From NCBI GenBank assembly GCA_964016885.1, contig OZ024741.1, positions 353,524,001-353,588,000 of the forward strand: a stretch of 64,000 nucleotides of DNA, in the 5' to 3' direction. Below, one piece after another: positions 14,217 to 59,631 of this stretch. The translations under genes were made by a program, and so were the position numbers. Every line of letters starts with the position of its first letter. The first letter of the stretch is position 1. This stretch comes from Eledone cirrhosa. Its lineage: Eukaryota. Below the pieces are notes generated by a model that was given only the letters and a program-made list of their open reading frames with translations, was not told the origin of the DNA and did not search any database.

Positions 14217-14350
14217 ACGAAGGAAATGTGGTAAGGAACCAGGTGGACCATAACGCACCAAAGTACTCAATACTTGAGGTAGTAGAGTGTGTAATAGGAA
14301 CCAGTAAGACCCCGACAGCTGAGCTCAAGCCGTTTCGACGGCTAATTCTA
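14217..14350 (-). mobile_element. Penelope-type pLTR fragment, family A, truncated in hammerhead stem II
   Basis: Minus strand tagccgtc GAAA cggc TT gagctc ... ttccttcgt(TA)n; other copies at 39641 and 48568. Confidence 0.7.
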
Positions 14351-14523
14351 TACAACTTCTACTTATATATATATATATATATATATAAGTAGAAGTTGTA
14401 TTTAATTTGTTGGAAGTCTGACAAACATAAATGTTTATAACTTAATTAGAGCACTCAACAGTTACTGGAGTAAATATTCAATGATATTAAATGAATGGAA
14501 ACTATATTTATAAAACCATATTT

Positions 14524-14586
14524 ATTTCATTATATATATTTCAAGGGCAACCAAGACAACATTGGTACGCTTTCATCAGATAAAAT
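14524..14586 (-). ncRNA. Type I hammerhead ribozyme (left arm)
   Basis: attttat CTGATGA aagcgtaccaa tgttgtc ttggttgccctt GAAA tatata TA atgaaat. Confidence 0.8.
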
Positions 14587-14674
14587 TTGTTTTATAAATA
14601 GAGACGTACCCATGGAAATCATACCTAACCGATAAGGTATGATTTCCATGGGTACGTCTCTATTTATAAAACAA

Positions 14675-14737
14675 ATTTTATCTGATGAAAGCGTACCAAT
14701 GTTGTCTTGGTTGCCCTTGAAATATATATAATAAAAT
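14675..14737 (+). ncRNA. Type I hammerhead ribozyme (right arm)
   Basis: attttat CTGATGA ... GAAA tatata TA ataaaat; 7-bp stem I, palindromic stem III. Confidence 0.85.
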
Positions 14738-14800
14738 AAATATGGTTTTATAAACATAGTTTCCATTCATTTAATATCATTGTATATATATATATATATA

Positions 14801-15009
14801 TATAGTATATTTGATAATATACTGTGTGTTTTTTTTAAAACGTTTTGAAGACCATTCACTATGAGTTTTAAAGTAGTGACTCGTAAAAACAAAGGGAAGT
14901 AACCGACAGCTGTTTCTCGTTTGTTAACGGTTATCAAGATTGCTTATCTCTTCGCTTATATCGAGACTTATAGAAGCTGGATATAAAGTATATTATCAAA
15001 TATACTATA
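14801..15009. repeat. 23-bp inverted repeat enclosing a hammerhead 3' half
   Basis: tatagtatatttgataatatact / agtatattatcaaatatactata; inside, minus strand GAAA cagctg TC ggtta at 14900-14916 with a taacc partner upstream. Confidence 0.65.
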
Positions 15010-15128
15010 ATGCATACATCGCTATTTCAGAGCTATGATACAAATATATATATATACGTGTATATATATGTGTAAAATAAAATAATTAAGTCAAATATTT
15101 AAAATTTGGCTTCTTTTATTAAAGATGT

Positions 15129-15183
15129 GCTGCTATATATATTTCAGTGACAGCCATCATTGGCTGTGACCTCTTCGGGCAGT
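15129..15183 (-). ncRNA. Type I hammerhead motif, family B (U4C core)
   Basis: actgc CCGAAGA ggtcacagcca atga tggctgtcact GAAA tatata TA gcagc; same family as 39858-39965. Confidence 0.75.
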
Positions 15184-15445
15184 CCGAATTGGTGTGGTAG
15201 AGACAGGTACACATGTTGTTAAAGTGTTTTAGTCCGTCAATACTCCGATATGTCCAGCTCCTGGTTGGGTTGTTATTTCTTTGAGGAACTGGAATCCAAA
15301 TATATATTATATATATATATATAAGGAAAAAAGTTGAAATCGAAAATGCAACTGGCGTCTTATTTTTGAAAAAAAAAAATATATATATATATATATATAT
15401 ATATATATATATATAAGATCAAAAGATGGTTAAAATAGTTCCATG

Positions 15446-55438: not shown

Positions 55439-55705
55439 CAGAGGTTCTCGGACGTTTGGGCCACCGCCCCCCTCACGGCCACGTAATGCCCTTAGCTCAC
55501 TCACCATTATTTCCAGAGAGACCTGCCTACACGCAAATTGTAAATATATAATAAATAAGATCGTTAATTTATATATAATAGACTATATACTATGTATAAC
55601 TATTATATAGCTTCTCCGTTCCTCCCTTGCCCCCTTTTTATCTACCGCGCCCCTTGGACTTTCTCAATGCCCCTGGGGTAGTAGTGCTCACTTTGAGAAC
55701 CTCTG
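55439..55705. mobile_element. Non-autonomous hAT element, 267 bp
   Basis: TIRs cagaggttctc / gagaacctctg; 8-bp TSD gtctacac / atctacac. Confidence 0.88.
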
Positions 55706-56349
55706 ATCTACACCAGTCCATTACCTTTAGGTTTATTATACTTGACAATAACTTAATGTTGATTACATTATCAAATAAATTACCTGAAACATTTACTAAA
55801 TGATAAGTTGTAACCTAATCCAGTGTTGTAACATTCATTGTAAAATATATTTTCCTCATGCATTTGATGTATAATTAAAGGGTCTGTATTGTGTGAACAT
55901 ATGGATTCATAGAATTGCAGTATTTCTTTGGGTCGGTGGGATAAGTGACTAGAAAGATCCTCTTAAATCTTCAGATAAGAATAGTTAAAATGCTTTTGGA
56001 AATATCCCATAATTTTAGATATGATGGAATAATATTTTAAACTAGTGGTGTATCATAATCTATAAAGCTCAGTGTGTGGCCATGCTCCTTCGTTATAGAA
56101 ATCTACGATATAGAATTTCTTCAATTGAAATTTACAATTCAGCATTCGAAATAGTTTCGATTGCGTCTTGACGCAGATAATTTTTTCATTTTCACCTACA
56201 ATTACGCAAAAAATAGATAAAACTCAATATTTTACGATTTTTCTATCTCATTTAAACTGCTGAACTCTTTCTACTACCATTCAAAATCTATACAACTTCA
56301 TACTTACTGCTACTTTCTCTTTCCAAGCTTGATGGTGATACTTTCCGTT

Positions 56350-56678
56350 CACACCACTCCCTACTGTCTTAAATTTAGAAAACACATATCCTCTATGAGG
56401 TTACTAAACCTGCTAGAAACATCAGCTAACTCTCTCCCATATCACACCCCTCCCCACACCACTCCCTACTGTCTTAAATTTAGAAAACACATATCCTCTA
56501 TGAGGTTACTAAACCTGCTAGAAACAGCAGCCAACTCTCCCCCATATCACACCACTCCCTACTGTCTTAAATTTAGAAAACACATATCCTCTATGAGGTC
56601 ACTAAACCTGCTAGAAACAACAGCTAACTCTCCCTCATATCACAACCCTCCCTACTGTCTTAAATTTAGAAAACACAC
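56350..56678. repeat. Minisatellite, ~3.5 units of ~92-105 bp
   Basis: cacaccactccctactgtcttaaatttagaaaacacatatcctctatgagg.tactaaacctgctagaaaca repeated. Confidence 0.95.
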
Positions 56679-56679
56679 A

Positions 56680-56963
56680 GACAACCATGCAGAACAACTC
56701 CATCGCAGCACTGTTGTTCGACTGGCATCGTCTACTCGCGTGTTGCGCAAGTACTGTGAAACAATAAATTTCAACACTTTTTTGCACAGAGATAATATCC
56801 ATAGGCGAAACTACAATTGTCACTGCTGGCGCAGCTCATGCTTCCAGGTCTGCAATTCATTCACCCAGTGCCTGGCAGACAAAAAAGTGCTGCCATAAAA
56901 TGGGTGGTGCAATCTAACTTTGGTAACTTAATGACCCCGAGCAACGCCGGGCTTTAATGGTAG
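56680..56963 (+). mobile_element. Probable non-autonomous Helitron 3' end
   Basis: Subterminal hairpin cccga gcaacg ccggg, then 8 nt later (C>G)TAG followed by T. Confidence 0.55.
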
Positions 56964-58589
56964 TTTTTTATAAAGCTAAGATTAATTCACCTTCCTTATT
57001 GTTCACACATTCTCATACAATCCTAGCATGACAGGATAATCCCAAAGGTATATGTTATTTAGAACTCCCTAAAATCACTTAGAAACAAGTTTTCTCTCGT
57101 AGCCAGAAAATTTCATAAAAATATAAAGCAGCGCTATTAATGTTGTTATCGTTATTGTTACTGTCGTACTTATTTGCCTTATGCTTGTGAATGTTCTTTT
57201 AATAATGTTGTAATGATACGAACCTATCGTAAAAACGGAATGAAGAATATTCTATAATAAAATAATTGAAACAGTTCTCCAGCTTACTTATTTCCACGAT
57301 GATTTATTTCCTAAATGTTCTTCTATTATTAAAAATATCCAACTTACTGTTTTCAATCTTTTATTTTGCAACTTTTCTGTCTTCTTATACAATGCCTTTG
57401 ATCCCTAAACTGTTTTAATCTCTAATATGTGTTTGTGTATGGTTGTATATACACACGTACATTCAGGCATGCACACACACTCACAATCATACACGCACAT
57501 TCACATATGCATATACATACATACATACACAGATACATACACGCACACTCACATATATATATATATATATATATATATACATACATAGATACATAGATGC
57601 ATAGGTACATACACACATATATATACATGCATGCATACACATACATACATACATACATACATACATACATAAATACATACATACATAAATACATACATAC
57701 ATAAATACATACATACATACATACATACATACATACATAAATACATACATACATATATACATAAATACATACATACACATATATATATATACATACATAT
57801 ATAAATGAATATACATAGAATATTATTGCTTTTGCTTGAATATGTTTGGCAATGTTTAATCATAGTTACTAAACATTCATGTTCACATACAGACACACAG
57901 ACACACCTACAGGTACAATTACACTGCCTTGTATCTATGCATAGATTTTCCTATAAAAGACTTCTACAAGCATATTACGCCCGAATAACAACTTGAGATT
58001 CTGAATACTGTATCATACGCTGATATTCCTTACGGATTAGTTTTGAGTGGTCTTATATATATATCTTTTCATAAATACCTTATTTCATAATATGACAAAA
58101 CCTGAAATGGTTCTGTTAGAAGCGATAGTATAGACACATGTAAGGCAAACGCAGTTATGTGTAACAAAAATAACTTACGATCTAAATCAAGTTGCAAATT
58201 CAATGGAATAAACCAAAAGTATTCGTAACTGAAAATATTGTATGTTCTATGTTTGTTGTCTTTGATAAGGGGCTTGGGGCGATGTTAGATATACTACTTT
58301 AACTTAACCGTAGCGAAACTTTCCATGACTTCTAGATTTATTAGGTTATACACTTATGTATCAGGTAAAGTGCCCTTAACTCATAATAGGGTCGTAGGGC
58401 ACCGCCCCGACATCAGCGTATTCTTGGGCATATGAAACTTGGTGAAGTCCATCCGGAGAACGGCTGAGAAAGAGAGAGAGAGAGAGAGAGAGAGAGAGAG
58501 AAAAGAGACCAGGGTTGAAGGCAAAGTTGATCTCGGTGGGATTTGAACGCAATGAACCGGAACAACTACCGAATCATTATTCATCCTAA

Positions 58590-59550
58590 CAACTCGCCGC
58601 CTTACATTCATGCATAACTCATATACGACTTGACATGGATACCCCCGTCGCTCGTCAATTCCGTTCTCCGGACCACTCCTCCCTACTAATTTCAGTCCTA
58701 GGTGTTCTTTTACTACACAGATCGCGCGCTGACCTCACGCACTAGAACTGAGCAGACCCTAATTTTCCACCTTAGGTCCATTTTACCTAATGCACTCAAC
58801 TCCCCTCCCCAATTTTTAAAATCTTTATTTACCCTTGCACACAAACGCTTGCATTTACTTCTATACTTACTCTAGCCACTGTCACCCCTACCACGTCCGC
58901 TGTCACACGCGCGCGAACACATTTACTCCCAAGATTTATATGGCTCTGTTACAGTCAGAATTACACACTTTACACACTCTTACAGCTTTCTACAGACCAA
59001 CAACAAACACACACCTCTACACTTACATTCACAGCTTTGTACTAACAAAAAAACACACACGGACGCAAGCACACACAAACACAAACACAAACACATTCAC
59101 ACACACACTCTTAGACTTAAATATACACACATATATCCGCATAGCTTCGTTACAGATAAACGACACAAACACGCACATACACACACACATATACATATAC
59201 ACACACACATACACACATATCCACTCTCTATACAAGACATTTTTCCCTTTTCAGCGCAGATGCCTTGATCACTGGCTTTTAAAACACGACCAGCTGAACT
59301 TCTTATACTAATGCTGGATACAACAGTCTTCCAAGAAATGGCGACCAGAATAGACCTGTTTTTTCTCGAATAATTTTTTTTTTCATTTCTGCCACTGCTC
59401 AAACTCCTCTATCTTTTTATTTCTTCTTTAATTTCCCATTCTATTTTCTGATGAAGGCCTAACGTCCGAAACGTTAAGTCACTTTTCTTACCATGTCAAG
59501 CATAAAACTAATATATTTCTTCGTTGTAGTATCGTTTACTTTATTATTTC
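58590..59550 (+). mobile_element. Penelope-like element 3' end (GIY-YIG C-terminus, CA-rich 3' region, pLTR)
   Basis: Peptide remnants GYPVARQFRSPDHS and RTRTEQTLIFHLRSILPNALN; hammerhead at 59448. Confidence 0.7.
59444..59479 (+). ncRNA. Minimal hammerhead motif
   Basis: tttt CTGATGA aggcctaacgtcc GAAA cg TT aagt. Confidence 0.6.
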
Positions 59551-59557
59551 TGTTTAT

Positions 59558-59631
59558 GAGAACAATTGTTTCACCTTATGCGGATCTCCAGCTCGAGCTG
59601 AATATCCACATAAAGTGAAACAATTGTTCTC
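59558..59631. repeat. 74-bp loopless palindrome centred on a probable hammerhead stem II
   Basis: gagaacaattgtttcac...cagctc|gagctg...gtGAAA caattg TT ctc; element continues to (TA)n near 59730. Confidence 0.85.

Follow-up and report, generated by a model that had tools for sequence, protein, structure and literature searches.

Short stretches of DNA that fold back on themselves raise the question of what fixes the point at which their two arms meet. We addressed it in 64,000 nt of the Eledone cirrhosa genome (GCA_964016885.1, contig OZ024741.1, positions 353,524,001 to 353,588,000, forward strand; hereafter the window), AT-rich animal DNA (36% GC) from a 3.0-Gb assembly, in which pieces of Penelope-like elements (PLEs) lie head to head between (TA)n microsatellites. 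An original prediction, made from the letters alone, had placed the junctions of six such inverted duplications on parts of a hammerhead ribozyme and proposed that the ribozyme dictates them. Our analysis points to a different rule. Judged from sequence, the palindromes would be pairs of very short PLE cDNAs joined head to head in (TA)n, and the junction is likely the capped transcription start within the pseudo-long terminal repeat (pseudo-LTR), a reading to which we give a probability of roughly 0.7.

All six duplications exist, at or a few bases off the positions first given for them, as seen in a self-comparison of the window, by which inverted repeats were detected. The seven palindromes examined are listed here, with positions inside an element counted from its inferred start (+1).

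48569..48839, both orientations: family A head-to-head stub; arms 91% identical, junction at 48704 with a 1-nt overlap
48720..48742, + strand: family A type I hammerhead, 3' half, with GAAA, stem III and the cleavage triplet
39641..39763, both orientations: family A asymmetric pair; paired arm of about 13 bp, 2-nt overlap, not nested
49711..49846, both orientations: family B head-to-head stub; 86% arm identity, 5' ends at about +2 and +7, placed by hand without a parent of that family B subfamily
41062..41448, both orientations: family E1 young palindrome; 99% arm identity, both arms ending at +2
39800..39965, both orientations: family D palindrome whose hinge is stem I around an intact hammerhead (39855-39903); 83% arm identity
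59558..59730, + strand: family C (Neptune-like) stub; inverted arm 59558-59594 (37 nt), sense arm to (TA)n at 59731
14471..14790, both orientations: family F palindrome (97%); complete hammerheads at 14524-14586 (-) and 14675-14737 (+)

All six predicted loci belong to hammerhead-bearing families, and three of them (48568, 49710 and 41062) join at +1. The arms of 48569-48839 come from different subfamilies and lie between (TA)n at 48537-48568 and 48840-48881; both finish at the outer (second) of two reverse-transcription start sites, with 5' ends at +2 and +4. Their junction falls on the loop side of stem II. The hammerhead half at 48720-48742 is mirrored on the minus strand at 48666-48688, the core and the 5' strand of stem II are missing, and the central hairpin was created by the inversion and is not the native stem II. 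The 49710 junction corresponds to the start of stem I, with degenerate cores at 49764-49775 (-) and 49781-49792 (+) and a left arm that extends into the tail. At 41062, the junction lies 43 nt upstream of the core (U3-A8 type, starting at 41298, +44), carries one inserted base at 41255 (G on one strand) and touches no hammerhead part, contrary to what had been predicted. The 59558 duplication (89% arm identity over 59558-59631) had been centred on stem II; its junction was found on stem I instead, where a self-complementary word lies on the 5' strand. At 39641-39763 the predicted duplication is present, reduced to its short paired arm: the inverted arm (39641-39672) covers the inner start site to about +29, and the direct arm (39671-39763) begins near +46 and stops at the outer start site, so that the stem III loop meets a position 4-5 nt beyond the cleavage site. 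The 39798 palindrome is a true stem I hinge, atypical of family D, and its right arm runs into a tail reaching (TA)n at 40061. By hand reading, the 14471-14790 junction lies about 45 nt upstream of the cores, at about +20/+28. Most outer arm ends stop in (TA)n, as predicted; the left end of 59558 is not TA, and some arms first cross the tail, which measures 40-125 nt in head-to-head pairs.

We then considered a sample of 119 stretches of 10 kb, 8 beside the window and 111 spread across the chromosomes. These 1.19 Mb contain 163 inverted repeats, of which 106 (26 kb, 2%) are flanked by (TA)n at either end, 64 of them in a flush-plus-tail layout, and the predicted targeting of (TA)n is supported. 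Repeats below 50 bp or above 2,500 bp were left out before clustering, as was locus L162 (C7:30000001-30010000), an AT-rich satellite with internal inverted symmetry that fills its full 10 kb. Further copies were drawn from the first 30 genome matches per pattern, the patterns being placed downstream of junctions. Junction placement at each locus was judged against read-through parent copies and unselected copies, and unselected counts omit loci picked with a query upstream of the anchor. End mapping anchored on the tail was dropped because of false ends at subfamily-variable sites. The hammerheads of the palindrome families were located by descriptor and by hand. In the window, a type I descriptor returned complete hammerheads at 14524-14586, 14675-14737, 39855-39903 and 50170-50256, the last of which (- strand) has a long stem II loop and a palindromic stem III; the best 150 of 190 Rfam matches to the window included no hammerhead, and the Rfam microRNA matches were set aside as hairpin and microsatellite noise.

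The arm ends piled up at a position that differed from family to family. Family B ends (49710; 27,663 exact matches to a 27-mer) clustered 6 nt ahead of the core; the distance was 43 nt in family E (41062), 69 nt in family G and 122 nt in family D (39798; 2,779 matches), and by hand reading they gather 80-90 nt upstream in family F. The offset of the core from the pile-up thus varies by family (-45, +7, +43/44, +70, +81/89 and +123), and therefore the junction bears no fixed relation to the ribozyme. The first ten bases held 43/53 of the downstream ends in family B, 12/22 in D, 12/12 in E2, 4/7 in G and 2/2 in E1, with P values against a uniform null, which overstate certainty, ranging from 5e-9 to 0.13 across these five (5e-9 for D, where the 12 ends fall in the first 10 of 143 nt). 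Junctions are strongly clustered, as the prediction implied, but the clustering is not bound to the ribozyme.

Pile-ups in families A and B do fall on hammerhead parts, as they would if hammerhead stems paired two cDNAs or if a cDNA stopped at the self-cleaved 5' end, but those of families D, E, F and G lie 43-123 nt upstream of the core. The stem I junction of 39798 also suits such a hinge; of 39 family D arms, however, just 3, that copy among them, have their ends within the hammerhead or at its edge. A pattern from the window family D copy matched only itself in the genome. Ends at the cleavage site were rare: 2 of 38 family A long arms stop within 1 nt of it (3 more end near the inner start site), and tail-anchored mapping placed 4/76 family A and 0/21 family B ends within 2 nt. 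cDNAs routinely pass the site, indicating that the templates were uncleaved, and the family A junction lies past the 3' strand of stem II, the 5' strand being seldom reached. Moreover, ribozyme mutants insert normally in vitro, according to passages of PMC11167929. The hinge is refuted as a general rule by families D, E and G, and we hold it to be very improbable as an explanation of the palindromes; control of the junction by the ribozyme stems or the self-cleaved 5' end is not supported. A hammerhead would lie near the junction only because the pseudo-LTR houses both hammerhead and promoter. The lack of CUGANGA upstream of the central hairpin had been named as a ground for refutation. Family A and E parents do lack it, yet they carry the U3-A8 core, a hammerhead variant published for Schistosoma PLEs (in the part of PMC4209133 concerned), so this test was uninformative.

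Family A, whose tail 29-mer has 9,230 exact genome matches, allowed the pairs themselves to be analyzed. In its long copies the end of the GIY-YIG endonuclease is reached about 700 nt upstream, and two loci (L301 and L304) hold full-length elements in which two repeats 3.1 kb apart flank a broken reverse transcriptase (RT) plus endonuclease frame. Read by eye, this frame displays the Hydra-clade motifs RWR, DKT, CxCX5C, CxxC and CxH; Pfam gave 0 matches for 4/4 family A pieces. The type I hammerhead of the parent combines a U3-A8 core with a long stem II, and one subfamily, with C3 opposite A8, has a hammerhead predicted to be inactive. Two 3' end sites, inner and outer, lie 79 nt apart, about 60 and 140 nt after the pile-up. 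Among 41 unselected head-to-head pairs (9 from a divergent sister subfamily being omitted), 38 consist of one inner-site arm and one outer-site arm; outer/outer pairs have 45 exact matches genome-wide. Of the 41 junctions 40 are distinct, so each insertion creates its own; overlaps of 1-4 nt occur at 15, blunt joins at 4 and inserts of 1-6 bases at 10. The subfamily box agrees between the two arms in 29/33 pairs, against 10.3 in shuffles, so that both arms usually stem from one RNA or one master. Arms of different subfamilies, found at 48568 and in roughly a quarter of the 45 outer/outer pairs (hand estimate), need two templates. The notion that outer/outer pairs always come from two RNAs was rejected, most of the 45 being concordant.

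Such pairs might also arise by snap-back, if one cDNA, or an antisense template as in passages of PMC3846280, folded at a hairpin or short palindrome and copied itself. Subfamily agreement between arms fits this route, as do the 39798 junction on stem I, family C junctions at self-complementary words of 4-6 nt, and a recurrent family A junction that can be drawn as a fold-back. A snap-back strand, however, copies only the first cDNA, so that one arm must nest in the other, and in 23 of the 38 inner/outer pairs the short arm extends further 5' (16 by >5 nt; 13/25 in a second mapping). The 39641-39763 pair is non-nested too. Furthermore, the second arm ends exactly at its own start site in (TA)n, some pairs derive from two subfamilies, and an extra G, described below, sits at the sense 5' end, at times on both arms. 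Snap-back is contradicted as the main route in family A, and overall we find it improbable. The proposal of two cDNAs primed from opposite target strands has held up, given the two internal start sites, the non-nested pairs and the two-subfamily pairs.

Among 125 unselected family A arms, 66 stopped at +1..+9, 12 at +10..+24, 5 at -1..-3 and 24 at -4..-23, and 18 read through, with the stop rate peaking at +1 (13 of 60 at risk). Inner- and outer-site arms stopped alike (30/63 and 31/52 within -3..+8) despite their 79-nt difference in length. Genome-wide, family A arms reaching +1 numbered 3,523 with a non-native preceding letter and 4,887 with the native T, the first letter of the pattern being restricted. 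This +1 falls inside the loop of stem II, with the cleavage site 41 nt downstream.

When twelve parents were aligned at +1, the pile-ups showed a promoter-like layout: a pyrimidine precedes A in 12/12. TATAAA stands at -30, -31 and -33 in three subfamilies of family B and at -30 in E2, CATAAA at -31 in E1, and TATTTA or TATTCA at -31, -29 and -31 in three subfamilies of family A, while family D has CCAAT at -52. The spacer between box and +1 is unrelated in B and E2. At loci L097, L159, L028 and L004, the family A TATA-like box lies within the 5' strand of hammerhead stem II. Promoter and ribozyme thus overlap there; transcripts from +1 would lack the core and could not self-cleave in cis. In family B parents such as L229 the inferred start is the first base of stem I; cleavage would thus remove a capped 45-nt leader, and cDNAs reaching +1 imply uncleaved templates.

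The letter preceding +1 provided a second check. In hand counts of the first 100 matches listed (of 3,523 in A, 1,251 in B, 551 in E2 and 410 in D), the non-native letter was G in 78/100 for B, 60/100 for E2, 48/100 for A and 40/100 for D, against 22-27% expected; dropping 13 read-through point mutants left 57/87 for E2. The extra G also occurs where (TA)n abuts the arm directly, with no G to donate, and it is often preceded by T, there as elsewhere. It sits at the sense 5' end, sometimes on both arms. A subfamily with a native G at -1 was ruled out as its source in family A, as read-through copies have T in 99/100 and G in 0/100. At control positions, G was found in 5/100 at A +5 (P=1e-12) and in 0/9 true junctions among 100 listed matches at E2 +17.

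These data also bear on the possibility that RT stalls at RNA structure or a bound protein within the pseudo-LTR of a long transcript and adds an untemplated C wherever it stops, before two cDNAs are joined, the TATA spacing being coincidental in AT-rich DNA. Stalling would suit the position of the family A pile-up, at the foot of an inner hairpin preserved across subfamilies, the family A ends at -4..-23, and a third control, B +31, which is rich in G. It sits badly with the scarcity of G at A +5 and E2 +17, with canonical TATAAA at -30/-31 in B and E2 despite unrelated spacers, and with the sharp drop of ends just upstream of +1. In addition, the pile-ups of families B, D, E and G show no common structure (folding having been run on family A alone). 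We therefore regard stalling as an unlikely account of the junctions.

Several observations nevertheless weigh against a capped start as the junction. Four of the seven window palindromes (39641, 39798, 59558 and 14471) do not join at +1, and TATA at -30 was not found in the D, F and G parents. The start was inferred and placed after the pile-ups had been seen, TATA spacing and the extra G being the independent checks, and the copies are not phylogenetically independent, hence the overstated certainty of the P values. For family B the one control is +31, where G accounts for 19/47; this site resembles an initiator and is 27-fold rarer than +1 (47 non-native matches versus 1,251, with differing patterns). 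The share of G at +1 was smaller in the locus sample (A 6/13, B 4/10, D 2/7, G 0/2). Reverse transcriptases copy the m7G cap as an extra G in L1 and retroviral work, background for which a search of open-licence PMC and bioRxiv text returned no paper. In family A, the ends of 24/125 arms were placed at -4..-23, within the loop of stem II, some of them via chance matching, and the hairpin may contribute there; +1 sits at the foot of the conserved inner hairpin, for which reason stalling may act at it. Family C (59558; 5,852 matches) shows no sharp pile-up; its junctions are spread broadly over short self-complementary words near the hammerhead's 5' half, and it fits neither the ribozyme hinge nor the start-site rule well. 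Finally, the non-native letter before family A +1 was C in 49 of the first 100 matches listed, and a recurrent junction that joins +1 to +7 with no G (29 of those 49; at least 970 copies) is not explained by a cap.

This recurrent junction occurs in both arm orientations and in two subfamilies, and most of 100 listed copies continue as an inverted arm. It may have arisen by self-pairing of a four-base word with tandem G-A pairs, by annealing and repair of an imperfect hairpin, or from masters in which the initiator was rebuilt. Descent from a native family A parent whose stem II is short and perfect was discarded, none of the 100 copies listed having an upstream hammerhead core.

The recurrence of one junction, together with the short, inverted, very abundant and TA-flanked nature of the inserts, could also suggest DNA-transposon miniature inverted-repeat transposable elements (MITEs) that are copied whole, or else fold-back artefacts that arose in sequencing or assembly. 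We find either scarcely credible, as 40/41 junctions are distinct and the arms are unequal, are pieces of an RT/GIY-YIG element, are up to 17% diverged and can differ in subfamily. For the same reasons of distinct junctions and unequal arms, identity with MITEs, which have a fixed interior and equal terminal inverted repeats, was rejected. Short-read contigs compared with 48569-48839 hold the family, and three cross the 48704 centre, none with 31 letters on both sides; as they possibly come from the assembly's own sample, they were not counted as independent.

With the junction read as a capped start, the following route can be proposed. In the full element, the upstream repeat would hold the promoter, +1, the remaining hammerhead and both reverse-transcription start sites, followed by the frame, so that in an mRNA from +1 the distance from cap to start site is 60 nt for one and 140 nt for the other. 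A capped mRNA with both sites near its cap would thus be made from the internal Pol II promoter. The element protein would cut both (TA)n strands, and each end would prime on uncleaved sense RNA. As a rule the two cDNAs would use one start site each and share their RNA or master. Both would extend until they run off the capped end, in many cases with a C copied from the cap and an A added to it; this A would pair with T in the partner, which would account for the T before the extra G. The ends would then be trimmed by 0-9 nt and joined via template jumping or microhomology end joining. The products may be likened to retroviral strong-stop DNA, fused rather than transferred, and for long copies the template would be read-through RNA, with priming inside the downstream repeat. 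More tentatively, such double strong-stop-like cDNAs could be routine: a dimeric enzyme might prime both break ends on one capped mRNA, with fusions as the main product, on the order of 10^5 in the genome; some junctions might rebuild an initiator and seed protein-free lineages, and the perfect hairpins so formed might be a major source of the double-stranded RNA (dsRNA) behind the very high level of octopod A-to-I editing. We consider this extension doubtful.

In L1 twin priming, two target ends prime on the RNA and the products are joined by microhomology, and the cap may be copied as G. In L1 priming takes place at poly(A) and the inverted segment is a 5' part without overlap, whereas here both cDNAs would span one stretch up to the cap, giving a duplication.

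The elements are ordinary in kind, and the predicted Penelope-like origin is borne out by families A and D, which encode motifs of the Hydra clade as defined in passages of Craig et al. 2021 (PMC8557442). Both have RT followed by a C-terminal GIY-YIG endonuclease between direct repeats (motifs read by eye; the family D GIY-YIG falls below the Pfam cut-off, E=0.006), insert in (TA)n and carry in the repeat a predicted hammerhead, with the U3-A8 core in family A. RWR (RWK, K to R) and DKT were read in L301, L304 and L312; the CxCX5C linker, with CCHH absent and CxxC and CxH around conserved E and N, in L304, L318, L320, L312 and L314. The passages on Hydra-clade PLEs describe the same C-terminal GIY-YIG, RWR, DKT, linker, (TA)n and repeat hammerhead. 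They speak of few families, however, whereas in this genome a single 27-30-mer has 2,779-27,663 matches and the majority of copies are head-to-head stubs of 100-400 bp; a junction rule is not met in these passages. The family C frame (L316, a single copy read by eye) has DKS, CxxC and C-H-H residues, to be compared with the Neptune-type DKG-like, CxxC and CCHH; frames L307 and L308 near family B could not be tied to it.

The inverted pseudo-LTR with a tail on one arm, present in family A pairs, resembles that of endonuclease-bearing PLEs as outlined in parts of PMC3846280, PMC8557442 and PMC2377424, with a 5'-truncated inverted copy, a junction palindrome, a one-arm tail and microhomology. TATA and initiator motifs in the pseudo-LTR are likewise common to published PLEs and the families here, and promoters there are reported in passages on D. 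virilis Penelope and Adineta (PMC2377424, PMC3846280). Published tails measure 30-40 nt in those passages, against 40-125 nt here. The section of PMC3846280 on junction palindromes explains them by self-priming on an antisense template; by contrast, non-nested arms and the cap-like G favour two cDNAs on capped sense RNA. This is in good agreement with passages on Anolis Poseidon (Frangieh et al. 2024, PMC11167929), in which both target strands were cut and extended in vitro on uncleaved RNA, targets were AT-rich and the tail was traced to two internal reverse-transcription start sites; the RNA was made in vitro, and these passages do not treat cDNA ends and their joining. Schistosoma hammerhead pairs on opposite strands, 100-700 bp apart, appear in the part of PMC4209133 on these elements. 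Non-LTR retrozymes, as portrayed in passages of bioRxiv 10.64898/2026.07.22.740005 (see also PMC7229834), are also short, non-coding and PLE-derived with a type I hammerhead. They form direct tandem arrays with a whole hammerhead per unit, in contrast to the inverted pairs and core-less family A stubs found here, and identity with retrozymes was rejected accordingly.

Three further family members in the window are single arms or truncated elements.

14217..14349, - strand: family A single arm with its 5' end near +6; the 14 nt joined to it (14350-14363) come from a family F 3' end
15071..15300, - strand: family D arm with hammerhead; 5' end near the family pile-up, about 120 nt upstream of the core
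15415..17513, - strand: 5'-truncated family G element; hammerhead and 3' region near 15450-15510, ending in (TA)n

The family D arm displays the native 5' strand of stem I, and the family G element runs without a break into a GIY-YIG fragment (16487-17047), which at E=0.003 falls below the Pfam cut-off. Within 14350-14400, the 14 family F bases stand head to head with the family A arm and mirror the F end across (TA)n at 14364-14387, as a two-family chimera or a flank-copying join would. Other inverted repeats are a 788-bp one at 40153-40940 (arms of about 400 bp, rearranged centre, (TA)n on both sides), a 245-bp palindrome of a further family at 51981-52225 (5 members clustered), and weaker ones seen in the self-comparison. 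Minimal hammerheads of a common family at 7120 (+) and 59448 (+) were seen without inverted partners, and at 46315-47030 a GIY-YIG-like fragment (-) lies beside a family C-like tail (+), possibly an inverted PLE arrangement. Decayed mobile elements recognized by eye (2736-4330, 30115-32149, 62570-63936, 37400-39400 and 49030-49480) comprise R2/R4-like RT, Tx1/L1-like fragments, an RTE-like fragment and a mariner remnant.

The junction rule is new and differs from the hinge originally proposed; a search of open-licence PMC and bioRxiv text, with Repbase, subscription papers and supplements outside its reach, returned no published statement that the junction is a capped start. How tandem and inverted PLE ends form is named as an open problem in a passage of PMC8557442. 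On this problem, tens of thousands of junctions favour capped, uncleaved sense RNA and two cDNAs over antisense self-priming. If so, PLE promoters would be readable from genomes alone through their junctions, and the hammerhead would not be what fixes the end of the copied RNA. The hairpins left by these insertions may also be relevant to octopus, for which unusually high levels of dsRNA and hyper-editing have been reported (PMC5625713).

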